Shown here piece by piece: positions 3,291 to 62,188 of a stretch of 64,000 nucleotides of DNA (within the stretch, counting starts at the first letter, position 1; each line of letters starts with the position of its first letter). Origin of the DNA: Candidatus Omnitrophota bacterium. Lineage in GTDB: Bacteria; Omnitrophota; Gorgyraeia; Gorgyraeales; Gorgyraeaceae. Below the pieces are notes generated by a model. It saw only the letters and a list, made by a program, of their open reading frames with translations, did no database searches and was not told the origin of the DNA. The position numbers and the translations under genes are program-made. The stretch spans positions 4,368 to 68,367 of the forward strand of contig JAHIPS010000016.1 in NCBI GenBank assembly GCA_018902915.1. Direction: 5' to 3'.

Positions 3291-6200
3291 TTATTCCACT
3301 GTCACGCTTTTCGCGAGATTCCTTGGCTGGTCCACATCGCAGCCCCTCTTGACTGCAATGTAATACGCTAAGAGCTGGAGCGGCAGGACGCTAGAAACAG
3401 GTGAAAACAGTTCATCTATTTTAGGAATATAAATAACATCCTTCGTGAAATGTTTTATCTCTGTATCGCCCTCGGTCGCGACTATGATCACCTTTCCTTT
3501 TCTCGCGCAAATCTCCTGTATATTGGAAACCATCTTATCGTATGTAAAAGAATCCGGCGCAATGCAGACAACTGCCCTGTATTCATCTATTAAAGCGATC
3601 GGCCCATGTTTCATCTCTCCAGCAGCATAGCCTTCGGCAGGGATATATGAGATCTCTTTTAATTTCAACGCGCCCTCAAGCGCTGTTGGAAAATTCAGGT
3701 TACGTCCCAGATACAGAAACGAACCAAAATGCGAATGTTTTTTTGCCAGCTTCTGGATCTCGTTTTTCTTTTTTAATATCACGTCCAATATCCTGGGCAA
3801 TTCCCTGAATTCTTTTATTAAAAATCTTTTAACCCTTTTTCTCAATGAACCCCTTTTCTCCGCAATATAAAATGCCAGTAAATATAGTATTGCCAGCTGA
3901 GCAGTATAGGCCTTTGTAGATGCCACGCCTATCTCTGGCCCGGCATAAGTATAAAGCACCCCGTCAGAGATCCTCACAAGGCTCGAGCCCACGACATTAC
4001 ATATAGACAGGATCCTCGCGCCTTTTTTCTTTGCCTCTTTTACGGCAGCGAGCGTATCCGCTGTCTCACCTGACTGGCTTATAGCTATTACAACAGTGTT
4101 CCCATTGACAATAGGGCTCCTGTATCTAAACTCTGACGAGAGATCCACCGTAACCGGGATATTCGCAAACTTCTCTATTAAATATTTTCCAACGCATCCC
4201 GCGTGATACGCGGTTCCGCAGGCCAATACTATGATATTTGATATATTTTTAATTTCCTTGTCCGAGAGATTTATACCGTCGAGCGATATCCCGCAAGCGC
4301 CTTTCAAACGCGAAGATATGATCTGTTTTAAAACCCTGGGCTGCTCGTGTATTTCCTTTAGCATAAAATGCGGGAATCCTGACTTTTGCGCGCTGGAGAC
4401 AGTCCACTTTATAGTGTCTATCTTTTTCCTCTTAACCTTCCCAGCTGAATCTAAAATCTTAACCTTGTCCTTTCTTAACGACACTACCTCGCCATCATCC
4501 AGGTATATTACCTTTTTCGTATACCTCAATATAGCCGGCACATCTGACGCAATAAAATTCTCGCCTCTCCCGACTCCGACGACGAGAGGGCTTTCCCTTC
4601 TCGCGCCAACCAGTTTATCCGGCTCATTAGAGGAAATAACGCCAAGCGCGAAGGAGCCCTTTAAATATTTAAGCGCTTTTAAAACCGCCTTTTCCAGATC
4701 CCCTCTATAATATTCCTCTATAAGATGCACCACTGTCTCTGTATCTGTCTCTGACTTAAACTTATGCCCTTTTCTAATGAGCTCTTCTTTTATCTCGTTA
4801 AAATTCTCTATGATCCCGTTATGCACCAGCGCGATGCCGCCTGAGCAATCTGTGTGAGGGTGCGCGTTTATATTTGTCGGAGTGCCATGGGTGGCCCATC
4901 TTGAATTATGAGAAATAAAACCGTTGGCTATAAAGTTAGAATCCGGATGATCCACTTCTAAATCAAAAAGAAATTTCTCTTCTGATTTAATTTTTTTAAT
5001 CTCTAAAATTGGCTGAAGCAAAATATTGGACTTTTTAAGTTTTTCATATTTGAGAGAAGATTTTCTTTTTAACAAAATATTCGATCGCTCTAATTTCTTT
5101 TTTGAGGAAAAGCCTATTTTTTTGGCAAAATTTTTAAAAGAATAGACGTTACTTATATGTAAAACATAACGATCATTCCAATTTTTTTCTTTCCGCTTCT
5201 CTTGATAGAGAAATGCCAGTATATTAAATCTTAGCAGAAACATCTGAACCATTTTAGCAATTCTTTCATCAGTAATAGCAAAACATATCTGTTGCCCTTT
5301 TAACCCTACATATCCTTCTGCATCAAAAATTCCTCTTAAAAAAGCGGCTATTTCATCTCTAGGAAGTTTGCCTATTTCACTTAAAAAATCTTCCTTCCGG
5401 GAAATTATATTTTTCTTTAACCACTGGCACAGGTAAAAGCTATTTGCTTCCAAAAGCCAGGCCCTAGTATCCTTCATAGAAACTATTCTTCCTTGAATCC
5501 CAAAGACCTCTGAAATTAAATCTTTATAAACAAATAAGAGATCTTTATCTAAATCTTTAAATCTTATTGTTCTCTTCTTTACTGTACCGTCTCCTAATAA
5601 ATAGCCAATTATTTGCATTAACTCAGGCGAGCTTTCTTTCGGCAAATTTATAAATTTCCCATGAATTGTATTTTGTGGGATAAAATAAGGTTCTTTAAAG
5701 CCGATGGACAAAGCAGGTAATAATTTTTGCAATTGATCTTCTCTGAAATTGCGGTCATTTCTTCTAATATGGTCCACATACCCTATGCTTATCCCGACCA
5801 AAGAAGAACAAGAGCTTTTGGTTAGTTGTAATTCTTTCAATCTATTCTTAATCAATAAATTTGCTTCTTCTGTAGCCTTAAAATATCTTTTAATAAAAAT
5901 TGACTCGAAATGCATCTTCTGTTCTTTAATTTCTATTGCCCGAGGAATAATCAATATATTTTTCTTATTAAGATTCTTGACTTTCTTTTCTATGATTCTG
6001 CCATCTGACATAACAAACATACGATGTTCACCTGTGCATTTTAGATAACCAAAAGAAGTTCTGATTTGATACAAAAATTCGGGCGAAGCATGGCATGCAA
6101 CTTCTAGTTGTGCAGATTCTAATTTGTTCGTCTTTAAATTGAAAGATAAAACATTGTCTCCTTTTTTTACTTTTGATATTGGGGTAATTCTGCCATCTGC

Positions 6201-6449
6201 TAATTGAACAAGCGTATCTTTTGACAAACAATGGCCTATGCCTAACCTGCTATCGTTTAAGTCGTTTCTCTCTTTTATAGCAAGAATTAAATCTTTGATC
6301 TTTCCTGAGCGTTTTGCAATCTTTATCTTATCATGGCTCAATATAGCTATGCCAGCTGAGTCATACCCGCGATACTCAAGCTGCTTCAGGCCGTCCAATA
6401 AAACCGGTAGCGCGTCCTTTTTACCTATATATCCCACTATCCCGCACAT
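3291..6449 (-). CDS. glmS: glutamine--fructose-6-phosphate aminotransferase, interrupted by an intein
   Basis: 1052 aa; MCGIVGY Ntn start, GIGH/[442-aa insert]/SRWATHG, two SIS domains, C-terminal DQPRNLAKSVTVE. 610 aa after removing the insert. Confidence 0.95.
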   Translation of the reverse strand: MCGIVGYIGKKDALPVLLDGLKQLEYRGYDSAGIAILSHDKIKIAKRSGKIKDLILAIKERNDLNDSRLGIGHCLSKDTLVQLADGRITPISKVKKGDNVLSFNLKTNKLESAQLEVACHASPEFLYQIRTSFGYLKCTGEHRMFVMSDGRIIEKKVKNLNKKNILIIPRAIEIKEQKMHFESIFIKRYFKATEEANLLIKNRLKELQLTKSSCSSLVGISIGYVDHIRRNDRNFREDQLQKLLPALSIGFKEPYFIPQNTIHGKFINLPKESSPELMQIIGYLLGDGTVKKRTIRFKDLDKDLLFVYKDLISEVFGIQGRIVSMKDTRAWLLEANSFYLCQWLKKNIISRKEDFLSEIGKLPRDEIAAFLRGIFDAEGYVGLKGQQICFAITDERIAKMVQMFLLRFNILAFLYQEKRKEKNWNDRYVLHISNVYSFKNFAKKIGFSSKKKLERSNILLKRKSSLKYEKLKKSNILLQPILEIKKIKSEEKFLFDLEVDHPDSNFIANGFISHNSRWATHGTPTNINAHPHTDCSGGIALVHNGIIENFNEIKEELIRKGHKFKSETDTETVVHLIEEYYRGDLEKAVLKALKYLKGSFALGVISSNEPDKLVGARRESPLVVGVGRGENFIASDVPAILRYTKKVIYLDDGEVVSLRKDKVKILDSAGKVKRKKIDTIKWTVSSAQKSGFPHFMLKEIHEQPRVLKQIISSRLKGACGISLDGINLSDKEIKNISNIIVLACGTAYHAGCVGKYLIEKFANIPVTVDLSSEFRYRSPIVNGNTVVIAISQSGETADTLAAVKEAKKKGARILSICNVVGSSLVRISDGVLYTYAGPEIGVASTKAYTAQLAILYLLAFYIAEKRGSLRKRVKRFLIKEFRELPRILDVILKKKNEIQKLAKKHSHFGSFLYLGRNLNFPTALEGALKLKEISYIPAEGYAAGEMKHGPIALIDEYRAVVCIAPDSFTYDKMVSNIQEICARKGKVIIVATEGDTEIKHFTKDVIYIPKIDELFSPVSSVLPLQLLAYYIAVKRGCDVDQPRNLAKSVTVE
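4905..6230 (-). mobile_element. GlmS intein with LAGLIDADG homing-endonuclease domain (442 aa)
   Basis: Begins CLSKDTLVQLADGR (Cys1 codon 6230-6228, preceded by His), ends FIANGFISHN (Asn codon 4907-4905) followed by Ser+1. Internal IIGYLLGDGTV and FLRGIFDAEGYV LAGLIDADG motifs. Splits the conserved GH-(T/S)RWATHG block. Confidence 0.9.
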
Positions 6450-44785: not shown

Positions 44786-48814
<4,029 letters not shown>

Positions 48815-48816
48815 TT

Positions 48817-51800
48817 ATGTACACGCAGAACGAAAAACTGATCCCGGTTTACATCGAAGACGAGATGAAGAATTCCTACCTCACTTACGCCATGAGCGTA
48901 ATCGTAGGAAGGGCCCTGCCTGATATCCGCGACGGTCTGAAGCCGGTCCACAGGCGCATTCTTTACGCGATGATGGATCTGGGCCTGGAGCACAATAAGC
49001 CGTATAAGAAAAGTGCTCGCATAGTTGGAGAATGTTTTGTTAGAGACACGCTTGTGTTAACCGAAAAGGGTTTGATTCCTATCCAAAATATTAGACGAGG
49101 AGACAGGGTGTTTACGCAACATAGCTTAAACCCTGTTACGCAGTTATATGAGATGCCAAAGAGAGAGCTTTTAAAAATTAGGCTTGACAATGGAACTCAC
49201 AATACAGTTACGCCTTCACAGAAATTTAAGGTGCTAGATAAAAATTTAGAATTTATTTGGAAAGAGGCAAAAGAATTAACCAGAGAAGATTATATTGTTA
49301 CAAGAGCTCATTATCCTGAAATTAAGGGTCCAGCGAAGCTGAACAAAAGCGTTGATATAAAAAAGCACCCTACTTATCTTAATGAAAATATAGCGTATGT
49401 GTTAGGTTTTTTGTTGTCAGATGGATCTGTGGAAAAATCTAACGGAAGACAGCGCAACAGGATGCGTTTTGATTCTTGCAGCGAAAGTATTTTAGAAAAA
49501 GTACGTTCAATTTTCAAACAAGAGTTTGATTATGAACCAAAGATTGAGGTGAAAGCATCTAGAGGCGTCACAAAGCACGGGAAGCCACTTAAAAAGATGT
49601 ATTCTATAAGGATCAACAGGAATCATATCAACAATTTCTTTATGTTAAATTTTAATCTCGAAGGCTGCAAAGCAAAGACTAAAGAAATCCCGCAGCAGCT
49701 ATATGTGTCCCCAAAGGAAGTAATATTTGCTTTTGTTTCCGGGTTAGTCGAAGGCGATGGTTCTATCCATCGCAGGAGAAACGTCATACATTATGGTTCG
49801 ATTTCCGAACAACTTATAGATGGGTTGCTAATACTTTTACAACATCAGGGTATTTTTGGTAGGAAATATAAGGCGAAGAAGACAAATTCTAGTTTTGTTT
49901 TAGGAAGGAAGGTCAAAGGCAAGGAAACATTTTATTCTTTAGAATTTAAAGGGTCTAACGCACTGTTGTTGGTCTCCAAAATTAACTGTGTTCAGGCGCT
50001 GAAACAGAGCAGGTTATTTGGTATATCTCTTAAACGGACGATTCCTTCAAGGCATGACCTTATTCCTTATGCAGGGGCTAATGTTTTTGCTGAATTGAGC
50101 ACAAGGCATATTGGGAGTGGCTGGTATCAAGATCTAAGCGGTGATAAATTCGGAAAGATAGGCCCGCCTCTTTCTACTTTTGTTGATGGCATAGTGGAGA
50201 ATAAAATTTATTTTTCAAAAATCGCTTCTATAGAAAAAGCTACGTCGCAGGAGACTTTCGACATACAAGTCGAAGGCGAGCACGAGTTTATTGCTAATGG
50301 CATGGTCTCTCATAATTGTCTTGGCAAATATCATCCGCACGGCGATACCGCTGTCTATGATTCGCTTGTCAGGATGGTGCAGAATTTTTCATTGAGGTAC
50401 CCTCTTATCGACGGTCAAGGCAATTTTGGCAGCGTCGACGGAGACGCTGCGGCTGCCATGAGATACTGCGTCGGCGGCGACTCTTTGATTGTGACAGAAA
50501 AAGGACTGCAAAGAATAGAGAAAATTCCGCATTATTCGAAAGTTTCTTTTAAGGCATTGTCAGCAAACAATAAAATAAATCATGTCTCAGAATGGTTTGA
50601 TTCGGGGGAACATCCGACAAAAACAATCAATACCTATAGAGGGTTTAGTTTATGCGGAAGCCTTAATCACCCTGTGCTGATTTGGCAAAAAGGGGGCGGC
50701 ACGAAGCCGCAGTTTAAATGGAAGTTACTGGACAAGATCAAAAAGGGTGATTATGCTGTAATTAGTAGAAATACTTCGCTGTTCCCTAAAAAAGAACCTT
50801 TTTTAATACCGTATCATCCGGAACTCAAAGGGGCTAGAAGAAACCACAGGCTTCCCGCCTTCATGAGCAAAGACCTTGCTTTTATTTTAGGAGCGGTGGT
50901 TTCAGAGGGTAATATTGATAAAAAGAAAATCGGTTTTTGTAATAACGACGATGTTTTTCTCAGAAAATTTAAAGAGAGTTTTAGAAAAGTATTCCCGGAT
51001 TGCAGGCTTCACGAATTTGTTAGAAAGCCGGTAGGGTATACAAAGAAGAATTATACTTCTTTAGAGATTCATTCACGCCATATTGTAGAATTCCTGAGCA
51101 ATCTTGGCCTTAAAGCAGGCACGGCAAAAGATAGAGCCGTGCCAGAAATTATATTTTCCTCGTCAAAGACATCAATAGCTTCTTTTCTGAGAGGATATGC
51201 GGAGGGGGATGGCAGCGTATACATGTCTTCTTCCTTGAAGAATATAGAAATTGTTTTTATATCGGTCAGCAAAAGGTTAATGCAAGAACTACAGATTTTA
51301 TTATTGAGGTTCGGGATAGATTCTTCCTATAGATGGCAAAGGACAAGAAATATTTTTAAATTATTTATACACGGACACAACAATCTCAATTTATTCAAAG
51401 ATCAGATAGGTTTTCTTACAAAACGAAAGCGTAATAAGCTAAGAGAAATTTGCGGTAGAAACAAAAGCGGCTGGGTTATGTCAAAGACAGATTTTGTGCC
51501 GTATGTTTCCGATTATATTAGAAGCAATGGTTACACAGGACACAGAGAGTGGCTTAGAAAACATAATATTGATAGATATACAAAGATAGAGAAATGCTGG
51601 GGAACTTTGAAGAAAATACTAAACAAAGAAGATAGGCAGTTGTATCAAATGTTAAAGAAAAATAAATATATTTTTGATCCCGTTATGTCTATAGAAGATA
51701 CAGGGCTGCAAAGGGTTTATTCCATAAAAGTAGATAGCCCCTGTCATTCATTTATATCGAACGGATTTATAAGTCACAATACAGAAGCGCGCATGGCTGC

Positions 51801-53844
51801 CATAGCAGATGAACTGCTCGAGGATATAGACAAGGATACAGTAGATTTTGTACCGAACTTTGACGAGTCTTTAGAAGAACCCAGCGTTTTACCGGCAAGA
51901 CTCCCTAATCTTTTAGTAAACGGCTCGAGCGGCATAGCAGTGGGCATGGCGACAAACATCCCGCCCCACAATCTTACCGAGATAGTGGACGCAGTAGTAA
52001 AGGTGATCTCTGAGCCAGATGTGTCCATAAAGGATCTGATGAAGATAGTAAAGGGCCCGGATTTCCCAACAGGCGGGATCATCTGCGGCAGGGACGGTAT
52101 AAAATCAGCGCATGAAACAGGAAGGGGCAAGCTAAGGCTTCACGCAAAGGCGGCTATAGAGCAGCAAAAAGGCAATAAAGAATCCATTGTCATAACAGAA
52201 ATCCCCTACCAGGTAAATAAATCAAAGCTCATAGAAAATATTGCTGACCTTGTGCAGGATAAAAAACTCGAGGGCATCTCTGACATAAGGGACGAGTCTG
52301 ACAAAGAAGGTATGAGGGTTGTCATAGACTTAAAGCGCGACCAGAACGCCCAGATCATCCTGAACCAGCTCTACAAGCGCACGCAGATGGAGACAACGTT
52401 TGGCGTGATCATGCTCGCGCTCGTCGACGGCAAACCAAGAGTTTTAAACCTAAAAGAGATTCTCGAAGAATATATAAAACATCGTCAGATCATAGTAAGG
52501 CGAAGGACCCAGTTTGAATTAAACAAGGCAGAAAAACGCGCGCATATCTTAGAAGGCCTTAAGATAGCCGTAGACCAGATAAACAAGATCATAAAGACGA
52601 TCAGAGAGTCAAAGGATGCCAAGGTCGCAAAAGACAGGTTAATGGAAAACTTTGACCTCTCGGATGTTCAGGCGCAGGCGATCTTAGAGATGCAGCTGCA
52701 GCGCCTGACAGCGCTTGAGAGGGACAAGATCGAAAAGGAATACCTGGAGCTTATAAAAAAGATCGAGATGTTAAATGCGATTTTAAAAAGCGAGAAAAAG
52801 ATTTTGGAGATCGTGAAAAACGAGGCGCTGGAATTAAAAAAAGTTTACGGCGACGAGCGAAAGACAGAGATAGTGGCAAAGGTCGAGGACATAGATATAG
52901 AGGACCTAATAGCAGAAGAAGACATGGTAATCACAATAAGCCACGCCGGTTACATAAAGAGGCTGCCCATAGGTTCTTATCGTAGCCAAAAAAGAGGGGG
53001 CGTGGGCGTAACAGGCATTGACATGAAGGACGAGGATTTTGTGGAGCACTTGTTTGTCGCATCCACGCACGAGCACATACTTGTTTTTACAAACACAGGC
53101 AAGGTCTTCTGGTTAAAAGTCTACGAGATACCTCAGGCGAGCCGCGCAGCCAGGGGTAAAGCGATAGTGAATCTTTTGCAGCTTGGCCAGGGCGAGCAGG
53201 TCTCTGCGTGCGTGAGGGTAAAGGAGTTTGAGGAAGGAAAATTTCTCGTGATGGCGACCAAGAACGGTTTGATCAAAAAGACAGATCTTATGGCGTATTC
53301 AAACCCGAGAAAAGGCGGCATAATCGGCATAACAATAGAAAAAGGCGACGAGCTTATAGAAGTAAAGTGGACTGACGGAAAGCAGGAGATGATCCTTGCG
53401 ACAAACCAGGGCAAGGCCATTAGATTTGCGGAGTCACAGGTAAGGAATATGGGAAGAGGCGCAAAAGGTGTAAAAGGAATCCGCCTTGGCAAAAAGGATC
53501 TGGTAATCGCGATGGAGCTCGCGAGAAAAGACGCCACGATCCTCACAGTTACATCACAGGGCTTTGCGAAGCGCACGCTTGTTGAACAATATAGAAAACA
53601 ATCCCGCGGCGGTAAAGGTATAAAGAACGTAAGTGTTACAAATAAGAACGGCGAGGCAGTGGGCCTGAGGATAGTAAATGACAAAGATGAACTCATGGTC
53701 ATGACAGAAAAAGGCATGGTCGTCCGCTGCCCGGTAAAAGATATACGCGCCACTGGAAGAGCAGCCCAGGGCGTCCGCATCATAAAACTCGACTCAGGCG
53801 ACAAGGTCTCTGCGATCGCCCGCGTCATACCTGAGGAAGAATAG
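48817..53844 (+). CDS. gyrA: DNA gyrase subunit A, interrupted by two inteins
   Basis: 1675 aa; ..[10 protein letters not shown]/[428 aa]/[29 protein letters not shown]/[438 aa]/TEARMAAIA.. then tower, coiled-coil and beta-pinwheel CTD. 809 aa spliced. Confidence 0.96.
49033..50316 (+). mobile_element. GyrA intein 1 (428 aa, LAGLIDADG) inserted in the QRDR-equivalent segment
   Basis: [13 protein letters not shown] (TGT 49033) ... [10 protein letters not shown] (AAT 50314-16) + Cys+1. [14 protein letters not shown] and [14 protein letters not shown]. Insertion after the residue equivalent to E. coli D72. Confidence 0.9.
50467..51780 (+). mobile_element. GyrA intein 2 (438 aa, LAGLIDADG) at the classic post-catalytic-Tyr site
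   Basis: [16 protein letters not shown] (TGC 50467) ... [11 protein letters not shown] (AAT 51778-80)/[18 protein letters not shown] and [14 protein letters not shown]. Blocks FDSGEHP.., [10 protein letters not shown] and [19 protein letters not shown] resemble the Mxe GyrA mini-intein as I recall it. Confidence 0.9.
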
Positions 53845-53850
53845 CCACAC

Positions 53851-53928
53851 GTCCCCATCGTCTAGTCTGGCCTAGGACATCAGATTTTCGATCTGACGAC
53901 ACCGGTTCGAATCCGGTTGGGGACGCCA
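53851..53928 (+). tRNA. tRNA-Glu (UUC), CCA encoded
   Basis: GTCCCCATCGTCTAGTCTGGCCTAGGACATCAGATTTTCGATCTGACGACACCGGTTCGAATCCGGTTGGGGACGCCA; anticodon loop TTTTCGA. Confidence 0.95.
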
Positions 53929-54333: not shown

Positions 54334-54556
54334 AAACTCTTCCAGAACCCCCTATTCTGTGATATACTATATATAGAATATACATGTCTGCCAAATTAGG
54401 CCTTAGGGATTAAGGAGAGGTTGTTTTTTTACGTGCATTTTTGCTGGCATTAAAAAAGTATTAAGTTTCTTTTTATTGCCGCTATTTCTTTTTATTGATC
54501 TAATCTACTCCGCAAGGTAACTAGTTGAGTCAAAAAACCTGTTGCCTAGTCAAATT

Positions 54557-57500
54557 ATGTTAAAGTTCAAAAAGCATAATAAATTTAAAATCGCATCTCT
54601 GTCTTTTATAGCAAGCGCTAGCTTGTTATTTACCAATGCGTTATGCTCCTATCCTGCTCCTGAAGATCTTTTAAGAATGCCCGCAGGAGACGAGGAGACT
54701 TATCAACGTCTCCTGCATGGACAAATGAACAATCCTCATTTGTCAGCTAATAAATCTAAAGATTTAACTCGGGAATCAGAAACTATTAGAAAGATTGGGT
54801 TAGATCTTGCGCTTATCCAGCGTATGAAAAGCAAACAACGCAATTCCTTAATAGCTGCTTTTGAAAAAGCTGAAAGAGCAAGTAAGGATTCCTCGGACAA
54901 CGAACTAACCGAAGAGGATATAGAGTTTTTCAAGGTTTATGGTGAATTATTCAATGAGGAATATTTCGAGAAAGGAACTATTTCTTCGTACAAGAATTAT
55001 GGTACATTTCCTGGACTTATTGAGCCTCGCATCGAGACAATCATCAAGGAGCTAGGACTTAAAGCTGGGGATAGAGTTCTAGATGTTGGCTGCGGTAATG
55101 GAGACTATGTAAAACTGTTAAGATTGAGTGGAATTGACGCTAAAGGAATAGAGATCTCAACTTACGTCTTAGGAAAAGCAGATAAAGATACCAGAAAACA
55201 TTTATTTCTATTAGATCAATTGGATTTGTTCGATGAGTTCGAATCAAAAAGCTTTGATTTGATCCTGTTAAAAGATATATTAGAACATATACCAGAAGAA
55301 GTTCTTCCACGTTTTTTGTCTACCATAAAGAAGCTGGGAAAAAAAGCACTTATTACTGTGCCTCTTGCAGATAATGAGGGCAGATTCTTAAACCCGGATG
55401 ACAACCAGGACTTAACGCATGTAGTTAGGAGAGGAAGGAACTGGTGGCTTGAGTCTTTAAATTCAGATTGCGAAGATACGGATAATATAAATTTAGCATT
55501 TAAGAAAGAGAAGGCCGATGGAACACTTTGCGTAATTGCGTCTTTGGAAAGCAAGGAATCTATTGACAGAGGCGCAGATAGTACGTTATTCAACACTACC
55601 GGACCTATAAAAATAGCTTTAATGGGAACTGCAATGATAAGAGCAGAACCCATAAAGAAAAGCGACTATTATAAAAGCAAGATCCAGAAAAAGTTTTTGG
55701 AACCACCGATTGGCGTATATAGATTGCAACATTTTCTGCAGGAAATGTTTGCAGATCAAATAGAAGAAGGCAAACTAATCATAGATGTGTTTGATCCCAG
55801 TTTTCTCTCTGCAACAGATAGCCTCCCATCATTTTTTTCTAAAGTGCGGTCCGAAGGATATCATGTTATCGGATTCAGTCCGATAAGGGTCCTTTTAGGA
55901 GAAGACCTCTTTTTTATGAGCAGAGTTTATAAAGAAGCTCTTGGCTCTGGTGTCCGCCCTTTATTTATTTCTGGAGGAAACGAAGCCTCAATTAATAGTC
56001 AGGTTTTATTCGATACGATGCCATGGATGGATTTTTGCATATACGGCCTTGGAGAGCCTGTTTTACAGAACATTCTCAACGAAGTATTTAGTAGTCCTGC
56101 GAAACAGTTTACAAGGAAAAATTTTTATAATGTGCCAGGACTTATCTATTATAAAGACTCCAAATTATTTCGGAATCCTTACAAGGCTTCTCATGAAGAA
56201 ATTAAACACCTTTCAAACTACACCCCATTAAACATACCTTACCAGGATTATTGGGCTCTTGCCAACACTAGTGTTGGCAAGATAAAAGGACTCAGGCATA
56301 CTAACGTGATAAGAATATTTATGAGTAACTATTGTCCTTATAACTGCGCCTTTTGTAGTGACCATGCTATTGGTAGGGCAGTTTTTGGTAGAGATATAGC
56401 TCCTGTAACTGCAGCGGAGTTTGGGACCATTATCAAAACGCTCTATCAAAAAAAAGGGGTGGAAGGCATATATTTCAATGATGATGACATGTTTGTTGAT
56501 AGAAAAAGGGCTCGTGAGACTCTAAAAGAAATTATCAGAATGAAAGAAAATGGAGAAATCCCTGCTAATATGAAATTTTATGGTCAAACGCGAGTAGACA
56601 GAATTACCGAAGAATTATTAGATTTGGCGAGAAAAGCGAGATTTGTTTATCTGGGTTTTGGCGTTGAATCTTTTTCTGACGAAAGCTTGTCTGCTCCAGA
56701 TATGAACAAAGGATACAAGGCTAAGATAGCTTTTGATAATGTAAAGCGTTCCCTAGAAAAAAGAATCCCTATTACTAATATTAATTTACTATTGTTTCAC
56801 CCTACTATATCAAGAGCATCTTTTATTACAACAACTGAAAAAACAGTAGAACTATTGCATGAATCATCGAAGCATCGGGCGAAACTGTCGGTAAACAGTT
56901 TTCCTGTTATTGAATCATATGTAGGCGCTCCAATAAATGAACTAGCAAAAGCTAAGGGTTGGCCACTAGAAAAAGAAAGCATAACCCATAATGGGAAAAC
57001 ATGGGAATATACTGTAAATTATCTCCCTGTCGATAAAGAAATGCGAAGTGTGGTTGAAAATCAAAGACTGCTAAAAGAGTTCCAGGGTGTAATGAAAAGA
57101 CTTGCCGAAGACAAAAGATGGCCGGGGACAACTGTATCTAGGAGCATAGGAGTAAATGGCTTGGCAATGTTTATGGCTGCTTATAGGATTCTAGGCATCA
57201 ATAACAGAGAATCATCTGTATCTATAGAGGATATGGAAGAGTTGATATGGAAATTAATCGAGACATTCCACTATGTAGAAGAAACTGCTAAGATTCTTTC
57301 AACTCAGAATGCAAACATTGTATTTACACAGTATAACCAAAAATTTATCTTCCGCAGAGGTTCAATGCCTTTGTCAGAAATCCCTTCTTTTGTAACTGCA
57401 GCTCTAGGTGAAAAATGCCCCAGAGAAACATTGATTTCTTTTAGGAATGCAAATTATTTAGATATCGAGCAAGCCTTACAGGGGGTTCTTTCTGGAGAGG

Positions 57501-59986
57501 TAAATAGTTTACAAGAGGCGTTTTCAAAATACGGTATGCCTGCTTATGAATACCCTAACTTTAAAAAAGTGTTGTTAATTGCTCCGTGCGGAAACTACGA
57601 TGGAACACCATTAAAAACAGTCGTTCCACACCTAGGCCTGGAAAGAATAGCACATTATGTTTTGAGAAGCGCTCCTGATGTAGACTGTAGGGTGTTTAAT
57701 CCTAATATAGTTGGGCGCGATAGGTTAAAAAAAGTGATTGAAGATGAATTTTTTGACGTAGTGGGGTTTAGTTTTCTTCCAGTTACGCTTAAAAACGATT
57801 CCCCTATGATCGATCTTGTAGCCAAGGAGTCACCAAACTCTATCTTAATAGCTGGCGGGATTAATATCAGAAAATTGCCTCACCAAGAAATCTTTGGAAT
57901 AATTCCGCTTGATGTCTTTATAGCTGGTCCTGGAGAGGCGACCTTTTGTAAAATTTTGGAGCAATTGCCACCCTCTGCTTCTGGCAAAAAAAAGAGCGTA
58001 AAAATCAAAAAACTTGAAGAAATTGCCAATCTTTATATTTATAATGAAAATCGGCTCAGCGCTACTAAACAACATCCCTTCCATTTTGTACAAATAGAAG
58101 AAAGCGAGCTACGAAGAGATATTGCTTACACAACCCCTGATCTGATTCATGGAGTAACATACGAAGTTGCAACCCAAGACACTCACAGCGAAATTTTACC
58201 TTTTGATATGGTAGGAACTAGGCGTTTATATCTTAAGAGCACAGATAGATGCAAAGCAAATTGCATTTTTTGCTCTGCGCCTAAAGAAAAAAACGAATCT
58301 GAGAGCATGGATACTTTGATAGAAGCTATGAGGAATGTCAGAGGAGAATATGATAGTGTGCATTTTTCTGACAATGACTTTCTGGTTGACCACGCAACAG
58401 TAAGAGACCTTTGCTATAAGATTATCGAGGCGGGATTAGAAAAGATTCCCAAAGTATGCAAATCACGCACTGATGAAGTAAATCCAGAAATATTAACACT
58501 CTTAGCGAAGTCTGGCTTTAGAATAGTGACCTATGGAGTAGAATCATTTGATAATAGCGTCCTTCGCAGGATGAGAAAAGGAACGACGCAGGAGCAAAAC
58601 GAAAAAGCTTTAAATATGACTCTAATGGCCGGGATTAAGCCTGGGATGGACATGATTTTCTTTTCTCCTTGGGAGACCAAAGAGACGCTTCTTCATTCGG
58701 TTGAGAAAGCTGTAGAATATATAGAGAAAGGAGCTTATCTTAATTGCACAACCGCCATGCACACTCAACTTGGCGATAAATTTAGTTCTGAAGGAAAAAA
58801 ACAGCAAATTCGCTACCAAGAGATTGATTTTACAAGCACAGGAAAAACTTTTCTTAATCCGGAGCGCATAATTCTATCCGCAGATATGGAAGATTTGAGA
58901 AAAAGAGTTTTGGATAGGCGTGCAATACTTGAAGAGTTAGCTAAGAAGAAATATGCAGCTACACACGGAAAATATGTCTCCTTTTCAACTTTATCGCTAC
59001 TTTTTTGCAAGGCTTTTTACGAAGTTCTCTTAGACGAGGATGTTGAAAAAAAAATAGAGAAAGAGTATAAAGTAAAGATAGACCAAATTAATACATTAAT
59101 AGACAGGACAATTACATTAGAAAGCCAAAGAATAGTAATCTTGCCCAAAGCCTCTTCCGGTGCTTCTACTTCTGCAATAATTCACAACATTTCAATAAAT
59201 TCTCAAGAAATACCGAATATTGATAGCAGAAAAGATGCTTATAATGCGTGGCGTAGAAAAGTCCGTGATCGTGAAATGTTTAGCGAAGCTGAGCTTAAAA
59301 GAAAGAAGGTTTTTTATCGTTATGGAAAAAAAGCCAGTGATAGATTACCCTCGGGAGAGGGGCATTATGGTATGGCTGCTGCCCTTTTTTTAAAGCCTGC
59401 TGGAGCATTAAAAGATAACATTAATATTATTTACGACGCCTTTAGAGGAACGCAAGCATATAGAAATAATAAATTGAGACTGTACAATTACGATAGTATT
59501 CATCACTCCTTAAATATATACGCCAGATTTGAAGACAAGCCGATTGCAGAAGACTTACAGCTTAAACATATGTTGAATTTGCAAGAATCTATCAAAGGCA
59601 CCTCGAGCTTCTTAATATATTTCGAAGGGGTTAACTGGAATAGCAATGACCATAAATTTGCCTTGCAGGCTTATCCTGGAAAACAGTTTTTGGATATAGA
59701 AAGTAAACTAAGAAGAGAAAATTATGATCGTATTGAATTTTCATTTGCTACAATTGTTGGAGAGTTAACACAACAAGAGCTGGATGAATTATTATCTTTA
59801 GTTAATATGTATGCTGAATTACCCATTGGTCTTAAAGCAGTAAAAGAAGTGAGTTTAGTACATGCCAAGGATGAGATGCTTGCAGATTCTATCTTTGTTA
59901 AAGATGTTGCTTTGCAACATACCGAAGCAATTAAAGTTATAGATATAGATCGGATGAACCGAATTATTATAGAAACTGGATTGTAA
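54557..59986 (+). CDS. 1,809-aa multidomain protein: N-terminal signal/anchor, class-I SAM methyltransferase, two tandem B12-binding-type radical SAM modules, unassigned C-terminal region
   Basis: VLDVGCGNGDY (55076-55108). HVIGFS..ISGGNEAS..YGLGEPVL then CPYNCAFC (56333-56356). DVVGFS..IAGGIN..AGPGEATF then CKANCIFC (58250-58273). I recognise no motif in the last ~330-400 aa. Confidence 0.75.
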   Translation: MLKFKKHNKFKIASLSFIASASLLFTNALCSYPAPEDLLRMPAGDEETYQRLLHGQMNNPHLSANKSKDLTRESETIRKIGLDLALIQRMKSKQRNSLIAAFEKAERASKDSSDNELTEEDIEFFKVYGELFNEEYFEKGTISSYKNYGTFPGLIEPRIETIIKELGLKAGDRVLDVGCGNGDYVKLLRLSGIDAKGIEISTYVLGKADKDTRKHLFLLDQLDLFDEFESKSFDLILLKDILEHIPEEVLPRFLSTIKKLGKKALITVPLADNEGRFLNPDDNQDLTHVVRRGRNWWLESLNSDCEDTDNINLAFKKEKADGTLCVIASLESKESIDRGADSTLFNTTGPIKIALMGTAMIRAEPIKKSDYYKSKIQKKFLEPPIGVYRLQHFLQEMFADQIEEGKLIIDVFDPSFLSATDSLPSFFSKVRSEGYHVIGFSPIRVLLGEDLFFMSRVYKEALGSGVRPLFISGGNEASINSQVLFDTMPWMDFCIYGLGEPVLQNILNEVFSSPAKQFTRKNFYNVPGLIYYKDSKLFRNPYKASHEEIKHLSNYTPLNIPYQDYWALANTSVGKIKGLRHTNVIRIFMSNYCPYNCAFCSDHAIGRAVFGRDIAPVTAAEFGTIIKTLYQKKGVEGIYFNDDDMFVDRKRARETLKEIIRMKENGEIPANMKFYGQTRVDRITEELLDLARKARFVYLGFGVESFSDESLSAPDMNKGYKAKIAFDNVKRSLEKRIPITNINLLLFHPTISRASFITTTEKTVELLHESSKHRAKLSVNSFPVIESYVGAPINELAKAKGWPLEKESITHNGKTWEYTVNYLPVDKEMRSVVENQRLLKEFQGVMKRLAEDKRWPGTTVSRSIGVNGLAMFMAAYRILGINNRESSVSIEDMEELIWKLIETFHYVEETAKILSTQNANIVFTQYNQKFIFRRGSMPLSEIPSFVTAALGEKCPRETLISFRNANYLDIEQALQGVLSGEVNSLQEAFSKYGMPAYEYPNFKKVLLIAPCGNYDGTPLKTVVPHLGLERIAHYVLRSAPDVDCRVFNPNIVGRDRLKKVIEDEFFDVVGFSFLPVTLKNDSPMIDLVAKESPNSILIAGGINIRKLPHQEIFGIIPLDVFIAGPGEATFCKILEQLPPSASGKKKSVKIKKLEEIANLYIYNENRLSATKQHPFHFVQIEESELRRDIAYTTPDLIHGVTYEVATQDTHSEILPFDMVGTRRLYLKSTDRCKANCIFCSAPKEKNESESMDTLIEAMRNVRGEYDSVHFSDNDFLVDHATVRDLCYKIIEAGLEKIPKVCKSRTDEVNPEILTLLAKSGFRIVTYGVESFDNSVLRRMRKGTTQEQNEKALNMTLMAGIKPGMDMIFFSPWETKETLLHSVEKAVEYIEKGAYLNCTTAMHTQLGDKFSSEGKKQQIRYQEIDFTSTGKTFLNPERIILSADMEDLRKRVLDRRAILEELAKKKYAATHGKYVSFSTLSLLFCKAFYEVLLDEDVEKKIEKEYKVKIDQINTLIDRTITLESQRIVILPKASSGASTSAIIHNISINSQEIPNIDSRKDAYNAWRRKVRDREMFSEAELKRKKVFYRYGKKASDRLPSGEGHYGMAAALFLKPAGALKDNINIIYDAFRGTQAYRNNKLRLYNYDSIHHSLNIYARFEDKPIAEDLQLKHMLNLQESIKGTSSFLIYFEGVNWNSNDHKFALQAYPGKQFLDIESKLRRENYDRIEFSFATIVGELTQQELDELLSLVNMYAELPIGLKAVKEVSLVHAKDEMLADSIFVKDVALQHTEAIKVIDIDRMNRIIIETGL

Positions 59987-60988: not shown

Positions 60989-62188
60989 ATGCCAGTTTCA
61001 GTTTATCAAATAATCAAAGAGCGGTTAAAGAATGATTGTCTATTAAAAGAGGGACAGGAGCAGTTAACCCTTTTTGATATTTTTAATTTGCCTACACTAG
61101 AACGCCCCCCGGTTATTTATCCCATAACTATATTAAAAAGGCAATCTCTTAGAAAAGCTGGTGATAGGCAAGAGTTACTGCAAATCCAGAGCAGAAGATA
61201 CATGGGCAATAAATTTAAATTATCAAGCTTTATAAGGGAAATCATTGACAGGGAATGCGAAGAATCCAGCAGTATTTGTGACATATTTGCTGGGACCGGT
61301 GTGGTGGGGAATGGATTCAATAAAAATGGCAGAAAAATAATAAGCAATGAGCTACTCTATAGCAATTATGTTTCTCTTTATGCATGGCTTTCTCCTGAGC
61401 AGTTTGATATGGGGAAGATAGCAGACTATATCCGGATGTTAAACGAAATCAATTCTGTTAAGGAAAATTATGTCTCACAGAATTTTGGAGGCACGTATTT
61501 TACGATTGAGAATGCGAAAAAGATAGGGGCTATAAGGGAAAAGATAGAAGAATTGGAAGTAAATTTTAAAGAAAAATGCATTCTTTTAACTTCTTTACTT
61601 TACGCAATGGATAAGGTTGCTAATACATGCGGTCACTACGATGCATTTAGGAGAACCTTAGATACAGTTACGCCAATAAAATTATTGATTCCGGATGTAC
61701 AACAGGACAAAAACAGCCAAAATGAGATATATAACGAAGATGCAAATCAGCTTGTACGTAAGATAAAGATGGATGTGCTTTATATAGATCCTCCTTATAA
61801 TTCCAGGCATTATTGTGACAGCTATCATTTATTAGAGAATATTATAACATGGAAAAAACCAGAGGCATTCGGAGTAGCCAAGAAGATGGTGCGCAGCGAC
61901 TTGAAGAGTCAATATTGCCTGAAAACAGCACCGAGGGTTTTTGACGATCTAATAAGAAATGCTAACTGCAGGTATATACTAGTTTCCTATAATAACATGG
62001 CAGGCAAGGGAAACAATCGTTCGAATGCCCGAATAAAAGATGAGGCAATGATCAGCAGTCTTTCCAAAAGAGGCAGGGTTAAAATCTTTGAAACTGGGTT
62101 CAAAAGTTTTACAACAGGAAAAAGCAAAATAGAAAACCATACAGAAAGAATATTTTTCTGTGAAGTATTAAGAAGTATTAAAGGGTGA
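60989..62188 (+). CDS. D12-class N6-adenine DNA methyltransferase (R-M modification subunit)
   Basis: 399 aa; RRYMGNKFKL, FAGTGVVG (motif I), LYIDPPYNSRHY (motif IV DPPY). AGGAG SD overlaps the lexA stop, with an 11-nt gap. Confidence 0.85.
   Translation: MPVSVYQIIKERLKNDCLLKEGQEQLTLFDIFNLPTLERPPVIYPITILKRQSLRKAGDRQELLQIQSRRYMGNKFKLSSFIREIIDRECEESSSICDIFAGTGVVGNGFNKNGRKIISNELLYSNYVSLYAWLSPEQFDMGKIADYIRMLNEINSVKENYVSQNFGGTYFTIENAKKIGAIREKIEELEVNFKEKCILLTSLLYAMDKVANTCGHYDAFRRTLDTVTPIKLLIPDVQQDKNSQNEIYNEDANQLVRKIKMDVLYIDPPYNSRHYCDSYHLLENIITWKKPEAFGVAKKMVRSDLKSQYCLKTAPRVFDDLIRNANCRYILVSYNNMAGKGNNRSNARIKDEAMISSLSKRGRVKIFETGFKSFTTGKSKIENHTERIFFCEVLRSIKG

Follow-up and report, generated by a model that had tools for sequence, protein, structure and literature searches.

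The gyrA locus and its spliced product

A gyrA gene interrupted by two in-frame inteins was identified in a 64-kb stretch of contig JAHIPS010000016.1 from a Candidatus Omnitrophota bacterium (the whole stretch analysed, 64,000 nucleotides (nt), is hereafter the window). The gene is the last of a cluster in the order dnaA-dnaN-gyrB-gyrA and lies directly downstream of gyrB, which ends 2 nt upstream of it. Both insertions are new members of known intein alleles. The parts of the gene, with lengths in amino acids (aa), are as follows:

48817..53844, + strand: gyrA precursor open reading frame (ORF), 1675 aa plus stop, reading frame intact (from the ORF list)
48817..49032, + strand: N-extein, GyrA residues 1-72, ending ..KKSARIVGE with Glu at -1
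49033..50316, + strand: intein 1, 428 aa (precursor aa 73-500), with Cys1, a HINT splicing domain and a nested LAGLIDADG endonuclease
50317..50466, + strand: middle extein, GyrA residues 73-122, with the +1 Cys73 first, then HPHGD-T83-AVYD87, and the catalytic Tyr122 as the last codon (50464-50466)
50467..51780, + strand: intein 2, 438 aa (precursor aa 551-988), with Cys1, block B S-L-N-H (50659-50670), blocks F and G, and a +1 Thr
51781..53844, + strand: C-extein, GyrA residues 123-809 plus stop, with the GyrA-box-like QKRGGVG at 52987-53007

Computed removal of both inteins left a GyrA of 809 aa. Its exteins contained the Pfam domains DNA_topoisoIV and DNA_gyraseA_C with six gyrase C-terminal repeats, and the spliced protein scored 1260 bits on the NCBIfam equivalog model NF004043 (cut-off 902) and 1225 bits on TIGR01063 (cut-off 877). 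With both equivalog cut-offs passed, Tyr122 present, and gyrB adjacent, the product was assigned to GyrA. The intein coordinates, the junctions, and the 809-aa product that an earlier note had read from this DNA were correct to the base. Two minus-strand ORFs inside gyrA (51774-52130 and 53133-53858) were regarded as shadow ORFs of gyrA, itself a well-supported gene.

Between residue 7 and approximately residue 250 of E. coli GyrA, the spliced protein could be aligned without a single gap, and because of this one-to-one alignment the insertion sites are E72/C73 and Y122/T123 in E. coli numbering. Residue 83 is Thr and lies 10 residues past the +1 Cys, the same distance that the earlier note had given, and residue 87 is Asp. 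We take the quinolone-resistance-determining region (QRDR) to be residues 67-106, as it is usually defined, which places site 72/73 inside the nominal QRDR; the site is presumably on helix alpha-3 of the helix-turn-helix in the winged-helix domain of the E. coli GyrA59 structure. The location in the QRDR was thus numerically right in the earlier note, but it is without functional effect: once the inteins have been spliced out, the QRDR is normal (Thr83 and Asp87), ordinary except for Cys73, and the position therefore has no bearing on quinolone resistance.

By the established chemistry of class-1 inteins, each intein would excise itself post-translationally. Cys1 of each intein would undergo an N-S acyl shift, the thioester would pass to the nucleophilic residue at +1 (Cys73 after intein 1, Thr123 after intein 2), the Asn at the end of the intein would cyclise, and the ligated exteins would rearrange to a peptide bond, giving the normal 809-aa GyrA. 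As both inserts break the DNA-binding and cleavage core, the second of them right after the catalytic Tyr, the precursor is expected to be inactive and only the spliced protein active.

Intein 2 at the classic GyrA site

The catalytic set of intein 2 was complete: it starts with CVGGDS, carries S-L-N-H in block B and Asp and His in block F, ends with FISHN, and is followed by Thr at +1. Pfam assigned LAGLIDADG_3 (3.2e-17) and Intein_splicing (2e-08, 34.6 bits, just below the gathering cut-off of 35.8 bits). The Mxe GyrA mini-intein (PDB 1AM2) was matched with E = 1.3e-20 over residues 27-103 and 395-438, which correspond to both splicing lobes, and approximately 290 residues with two LAGLIDADG motifs separate the matched lobes. 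The two motifs are located as follows:

50875..50916, + strand: LAGLIDADG motif 1 of intein 2 (..VVSEGN..), acidic residue kept (Pfam, direct reading)
51175..51219, + strand: LAGLIDADG motif 2 of intein 2 (..AEGDGS..), acidic residue kept (Pfam, direct reading)

Like the Mxe GyrA mini-intein, intein 2 separates the catalytic Tyr from Thr (..MRY/C...HN/TEAR..) and has Cys1 and a +1 Thr. Unlike that 198-aa mini-intein, it has 438 aa with a LAGLIDADG endonuclease, its block B begins with Ser instead of Thr, and its host is non-actinobacterial. A GyrA domain was present in 34 of its 35 database relatives, with the junction ..MRY/C...HN/TE.. wherever it lay on the fragment. Homologues of this type occupy the same site in Omnitrophota, Candidate Phyla Radiation (CPR) bacteria, Nanoarchaeota, Acidobacteriota, and Actinomycetota, and the classic 122/123 allele has a dedicated NCBIfam model (NF038098, 'intein-containing DNA gyrase subunit A'). 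The closest full-length relative, protein P0022 from Omnitrophota, shared 66% aa identity, and partial fragments reached up to 75%. On the evidence of its sequence and junctions, we assign intein 2 to the mycobacterial-type allele, at the classic GyrA site directly behind the catalytic Tyr; the match of both lobes to 1AM2 bears out the homology to the Mxe intein and the retained endonuclease that had been claimed before.

Anatomy of intein 1 and its block B

Intein 1 begins with CFVRDT, ends with MVSHN, and is followed by Cys at +1, so that the nucleophiles of a class-1 intein are in place. Its further features are as follows:

49210..49221, + strand: block B, T-P-S-Q, with Gln63 at the B:10 His position (hhalign)
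49390..49431, + strand: LAGLIDADG motif 1 of intein 1 (..LLSDGS..), acidic Asp kept (Pfam, family alignment, direct reading)
49723..49767, + strand: LAGLIDADG motif 2 of intein 1 (..VEGDGS..), acidic Asp kept (Pfam, family alignment, direct reading)
50143..50163, + strand: scar of a 37-aa in-frame deletion (~114 nt), with the break after nt 50151 (..DKF/GKIG..) (alignments with the family and with locus L090)
50254..50316, + strand: blocks F and G, with the F-block Asp and His, the penultimate His, and the terminal Asn (sequence, family alignment)

Pfam assigned Intein_splicing (1.9e-17) and LAGLIDADG_3 (1.7e-19). Pfam and a reading of the motifs supported the earlier description of both inserts as full-length inteins with two LAGLIDADG motifs each. 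An AlphaFold2 model of intein 1 reached a mean per-residue confidence (pLDDT) of 86 and a predicted template-modelling score (pTM) of 0.87. Foldseek matched the model to solved inteins with E = 4e-24 to 1e-14 and a template-modelling (TM) score of up to 0.65, and also to the hedgehog Hint domain. Intein 1 is thus modelled as a HINT fold split by a two-lobed LAGLIDADG domain. TliVMA, PhoVMA, PI-PfuI, PI-SceI, and Pyrococcus kodakaraensis intein endonuclease II (2cw7) have a fold like the predicted one; they differ from intein 1 in their host genes, sharing 12-20% identity with it, and in intein 1 the small accessory segment that follows the endonuclease core is cut short.

The class-1 form of block B, T-x-x-H, is replaced by T-P-S-Q in intein 1, while the His is present in intein 2 (S-L-N-H). 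The segment VTPSQKFKV of intein 1 was aligned by hhalign onto GSLNHPVLI of intein 2 with a probability of 99%, placing Gln63 on the block-B His, and this His of intein 2 was in turn aligned with the His of TANH in the Mxe GyrA intein. The Gln is the rule among inteins at site 72/73: T-x-x-Q was found in 48 of 51 family proteins and in approximately 98 of 103 genome loci among the matches listed, and a small actinomycete subgroup carries T-N-G-H.

Reviews describe the block-B His as the most conserved intein residue, and it is essential in many inteins (PMC6333167, PMC4031507). In 2014, two catalogued inteins without it were counted, one a pseudogene and the other Tko CDC21-1 (PMC4031507), which makes up for the missing His with a Lys; a few inteins that naturally lack the His do splice (PMC6333167, PMC4031507). 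Like Tko CDC21-1 and its orthologues, intein 1 is a class-1 intein (Cys1, terminal His-Asn, and a +1 nucleophile) with no His at B:10, and it shares with that group a large side chain at -1, here Glu. Unlike Tko CDC21-1, in which Lys58 compensates, it has Gln as the replacement, and the host protein and site differ. The conservation of the 72/73 family in intact genes whose product is an essential enzyme suggests that its members splice. The block-B His might be replaced by the amide of the Gln acting with the conserved acidic residue at -1.

A 37-aa deletion in intein 1

The segment lost from the window copy (R-x-G-I-K-Y..K-I-R-Y-S..Q-I-x-E-W-G-I..K-L) is conserved in the family and lies between the endonuclease and the C-terminal splicing lobe. 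Among the 13 members that cover the region in the family alignment, it is absent only from the window copy, and the orthologue at L090 keeps it. The window copy otherwise shares with the 72/73 allele the site, the T-x-x-Q block B, block F, and the two LAGLIDADG motifs. At L090, the 114 nt that the window has lost are bounded by the imperfect direct repeats GGTGATAAATTC and GGAGACAAATTA, and a deletion with such repeats at both ends fits slippage. In an AlphaFold2 model of the homologue P0001, the segment folds into one strand, a loop, and a pair of short helices, and sits between the core of the endonuclease and the C-terminal HINT strands.

The deletion lies outside blocks A, B, F, and G. The loss may affect DNA recognition by the endonuclease, and hence homing, rather than splicing; the endonuclease of a fixed intein would be expected to begin its decay in this way. 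Shortened family members were found elsewhere, with 232 aa in P0153 and P0168 and 130-174 aa at loci L049, L069, and L072.

Occupancy of site 72/73

In a word-indexed protein search with intein 1, 20 of the 21 matches were GyrA fragments with an intein at the same junction. An exhaustive search of 1.84 billion representatives returned 40 clusters at E <= 1e-30, and more than 45 proteins with an insertion at 72/73 were found when its top matches were mapped onto the spliced GyrA. Species-representative genomes were searched with a site probe, the DNA encoding the C-terminal junction H-N/C-x-G-K-[YF]-H-P-H-G-D, a sequence that cannot occur in an intein-less gene. The probe matched at least 120 of these genomes and one IMG/VR contig (L121), and the N-terminal junction ..K-S-[AS]-R-x-V-G-[ED]/C-F.. 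was recovered by in-frame translation in approximately 100 of the matches listed. Intein 1 of the window fits this allele, with Glu72 and a +1 Cys ahead of x-G-K-[YF]-H-P-H-G-D.

The bacterial hosts listed were Omnitrophota, metagenome-assembled genomes (MAGs) labelled Planctomycetes, Acidobacteriota, Bacteroidota, CPR lineages, Methylococcaceae, Desulfurobacteriaceae, and Bipolaricaulota, and the archaeal hosts among the matches listed were Woesearchaeota, Methanomassiliicoccales, Thermoplasmatota, and Asgard and DPANN archaea. Cultured actinomycete hosts were listed from Amycolatopsis, Lentzea, Actinosynnema, Saccharothrix, Kutzneria, Umezawaea, and Micromonospora (e.g., Amycolatopsis jejuensis NRRL B-24427, Kutzneria sp. 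744, and Saccharothrix algeriensis DSM 44581). Sites 72/73 and 122/123 are established, recurrent intein alleles of the A subunits of type IIA topoisomerases.

The possibility that all listed genome loci are gyrA was rejected. Among the 121 loci listed, approximately 70 were GyrA-like and approximately 50 ParC-like. The actinomycete loci belong to a ParC-like paralogue because they have no GyrA box and no adjacent gyrB and score under the cut-offs of the GyrA equivalog models; the one model that they do pass is the broader 'DNA topoisomerase (ATP-hydrolyzing)'. Unlike in the window, the intein of approximately 50 of the at least 120 listed genomes thus resides in this actinomycete paralogue and not in true GyrA.

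The earlier note had held the first insertion site to be unusual, and this part of it does not stand: the result that it had itself named as counting against the claim, a well-populated allele, was obtained. As that note implied, the old InBase catalogue may have lacked the 72/73 allele. The family also appears to have been outside the curated catalogue in 2014, because only two His-less inteins were then known (PMC4031507). We found no published name for site 72/73 in the literature on gyrA, Omnitrophica, and topoisomerase IV inteins. Novikova et al. (2016) list 50 bacterial GyrA inteins in the main text of their paper, where the sites are not named.

Inteins at both 72/73 and 122/123 were found in at least 13 of the loci listed, including Umezawaea tangerina DSM 44720 and Kutzneria viridogrisea DSM 43850, and in proteins P0083, P0123, P0153, and P0068. 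As an essential replication gene with several inteins, gyrA resembles haloarchaeal MCM (sites a-d; PMC10643990), with two endonuclease-bearing inteins 150 nt apart and relatives carrying one. It differs from MCM in the gene and in the bacterial host, and it is known here from sequence alone.

Further arrangements were noted at or near these sites. The metagenomic GyrA P0068 (1351 aa) carries three inteins, at 72/73, at HPHGD/S83 (a mini-intein placed right at the codon for Ser83), and at 122/123. Another GyrA site, GQGNFG/C (E. coli 110/111), is occupied in P0002, P0018, and P0058 and at loci L004, L012, L017, L076, L103, and L111; in these nine sequences the 110/111 intein always stands alongside a 72/73 intein, and at least six of the loci listed combine both. 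In P0022 (Omnitrophota) and P0032 (Acidobacteriota), site 72/73 is empty yet residue 73 is Cys (..VGDC[LI]GKYHP..), which could be the footprint of a precise intein loss or a pre-adapted target. The contig L121 (IMGVR_UViG_3300037067_017034) encodes Pol III alpha, a Dam methyltransferase, gyrB, and gyrA with inteins at 72/73 and 122/123. Its gyrB is split, with a Hint domain at the point where the first ORF gives way to the second, and its gene content does not prove a viral origin. In a tblastn search of cultured phage genomes with intein 1, the matches listed were all distant inteins that lay in genes for terminase and DNA polymerase and shared no more than 24% identity with it, which gave no sign of a phage vector for intein 1.

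History of the inteins among close relatives

The nearest relative in the fetched set was L090, a MAG labelled Planctomycetia; the other close matches and the best protein matches were labelled Omnitrophota. L090 shares the dnaA-dnaN-gyrB-gyrA order with the window, and nucleotide identity between the two was approximately 87-90% over the exteins of gyrA and gyrB. For intein 1 it was 81%, and the orthologue of intein 1 at L090 has 82% aa identity. Where the window has intein 2, L090 has a precise empty site (..GCTATGCGGTAC/ACCGAGGCG.., also written ..GCTATGCGGTAC/ACCGAGGCGAGA..). Three Omnitrophota loci (L086, L056, and L028) likewise have intein 1 and lack intein 2, again with a precisely empty 122/123 site. 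The gyrB gene is uninterrupted in L090, L086, and L028, and the L056 locus stops short of the gyrB site. The reverse pattern was observed in P0022, which has the intein 2 relative and an empty 72/73 site.

Intein 1, being common to the nearest relatives, appears to be an old, inherited resident of the clade. Intein 2 is the variable member of the pair and, like the gyrB intein, is present in some close relatives and absent from others. Either homing or precise loss would produce this pattern: intein 2 and the gyrB intein would have been gained by endonuclease-driven homing into an empty allele, or else precisely lost in the relatives.

The ratio of nonsynonymous to synonymous substitution rates (dN/dS), calculated by the Nei-Gojobori method for the window against L090, was approximately 0.03 for the exteins, 0.12 for the whole of intein 1, and roughly 0.09 for its endonuclease part. 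The low value for intein 1 indicates purifying selection on it. The endonuclease segment (49330-50050) had a dS of approximately 1.8, three to four times that of the splicing lobes (~0.43-0.51) and the C-extein (0.54), and saturation in AT-rich codons and a separate history of the endonuclease module are both possible explanations.

Composition and the other inteins of the window

Two further inteins lie in the window outside gyrA:

46322-47914, + strand: gyrB intein, 531 aa, in gyrB (44798-48814), within the Toprim D-x-D motif; GC content at third codon positions (GC3) 0.465, the least AT-rich
4905-6230, - strand: glmS intein, 442 aa, in glmS (3291-6449), with the junctions ..GIGH/CLSKDT.. 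and ..FISHN/SRWATHG..

Both are real, and the earlier count of four inteins in 64 kb was right. The nucleophiles of the gyrB intein appear to be Ser1 and a Ser at +1. In ten further window ORFs of approximately 300-450 aa, neither an intein nor a Hint domain was found.

All four inteins are AT-richer than their own exteins at third codon positions. The GC content was 0.377 for intein 1, 0.368 for intein 2, and 0.479 for the gyrA exteins, with GC3 values of 0.36, 0.365, and 0.566, respectively. The glmS intein is the most AT-rich of the four (GC 0.31, GC3 0.27), and the GC3 of 26 other window ORFs averaged 0.47 with a standard deviation of 0.065. The AT-richness of the gyrA inteins, which the earlier note had reported, was thus confirmed, but its reading as a mark of horizontal acquisition was supported only in part: intein 1 is just as AT-rich although the nearest relatives carry its orthologues, and the inteins that these relatives lack are intein 2 and the gyrB intein. 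The use of AT-richness to date acquisition was rejected, since composition does not follow presence and absence among relatives: the inherited intein 1 is as AT-rich as the variable intein 2, and the variable gyrB intein is the least so, which makes composition weak evidence of recent transfer.

An AT-rich block was observed directly downstream of gyrA. It contains an ORF at 54542-59986 (+ strand), a 1814-aa fusion with S-adenosylmethionine (SAM) methyltransferase, B12-binding, and radical-SAM domains (GC3 0.32), and an ORF at 60989-62188 (+ strand) for a Dam-type N6-adenine methyltransferase (GC3 0.35). These two have the lowest GC3 among the 26 non-intein ORFs profiled.

Interpretation and alternative explanations

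The gyrA gene of the window very probably encodes a 1675-aa precursor with two class-1 inteins, both with nested endonucleases and both at known alleles, in which intein 1 is a resident and intein 2, like the gyrB intein, is variable. Several points weigh against this interpretation. Splicing and DNA cleavage are predicted from motifs, and the splicing competence of intein 1 has to be presumed in the face of a Gln63 in place of an often-essential His and the 37-aa deletion. A second, uninterrupted gyrA could lie elsewhere in the genome, of which 64 kb are in view. There is no near-identical donor of intein 2 among its 35 database relatives, and it would take a tree to distinguish a gain of intein 2 here from its precise loss in the relatives. 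The dN/dS of 0.09 in the endonuclease segment is rough because the dS of 1.8 is saturated.

The proposal that the GyrA site of intein 1 is new or rare and that intein 1 arrived there recently by horizontal transfer, as its AT-richness would imply, is hardly credible. It draws on the GC3 of 0.36 against 0.57 in the extein, on the lack of any paper found to name site 72/73, and on the 2014 review, whose two His-less inteins (PMC4031507) suggest that the family was then uncatalogued. Rarity is already refuted by the occupancy of the site in at least 120 species-representative genomes of many phyla. Recency is contradicted by the orthologous and syntenic copies at L090, L086, L056, and L028, which show that intein 1 was inherited in the clade, and a gyrB intein absent from relatives yet least AT-rich (GC3 0.465) disqualifies composition as a sign of recency. 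We consider it very unlikely that intein 1 is splicing-dead through the block-B Gln and the deletion, leaving a dead or dying gyrA copy, with gyrase coming from another gene. In favour of this, the residue that is replaced is one that many inteins cannot do without (PMC6333167, PMC4031507), the window copy is alone among the 13 aligned members and L090 in lacking the 37-aa segment, and the view is confined to 64 kb; but the Gln is the family norm, including in intact GyrA-like genes of many lineages, and the deletion is in frame and outside the splicing blocks. The gene itself, moreover, stands in the canonical dnaA-dnaN-gyrB-gyrA cluster, with an ORF intact over 5 kb and dN/dS values of 0.03 in the extein and 0.12 in the intein.

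An assembly chimera of co-assembled strains, some with intein 1 and others with intein 2, is extremely unlikely. The window appears to be metagenome-assembled and a relative of MAGs, intein content differs among close relatives, and an exact copy of the 1675-aa precursor is not on record. Both inserts are nevertheless exactly in frame with 150 nt of coherent extein between them, and the double architecture recurs in isolate genomes (L035 and L118) and in the independent metagenomic proteins P0083 and P0123. It is also unlikely, though less so, that the inteins are conditional post-translational switches, responding to redox state, temperature, or DNA damage and tuning the gyrase supply, rather than purely selfish elements. 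Their position in the DNA-binding and cleavage core, where the precursor should be inactive, would suit such a role, as would a redox-sensitive disulfide that Cys1 and the +1 Cys of intein 1 could form and the persistence of intein 1 in the clade under purifying selection; regulatory roles have been discussed for inteins clustered in replication proteins (PMC4760082; see also PMC11409957). Direct evidence for a switch is absent here, close relatives manage without intein 2, and two other factors account for retention equally well: an intein is hard to lose precisely from an active-site region that is essential, and its endonuclease can drive reinvasion. We therefore retain the interpretation of two class-1 inteins at known alleles, one resident and one variable.

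Implications

The direct consequences of the finding are small: gene callers and annotation pipelines must cope with a GyrA precursor of 1675 aa. Close relatives that differ in whether they carry intein 2 and the gyrB intein, together with P0022-type alleles, provide a natural series on the gain, loss, and co-residence of inteins in a single essential gene. The His-less 72/73 family has more than 100 members, some of them in culturable actinomycetes, which brings the question of its splicing mechanism within reach of ordinary cloning. If splicing proves efficient, the family, of which the window copy would be a member with an additional natural deletion, could perhaps constitute a large natural class of inteins that activate the N-terminal scissile bond without a block-B His, a suggestion that we put forward tentatively.

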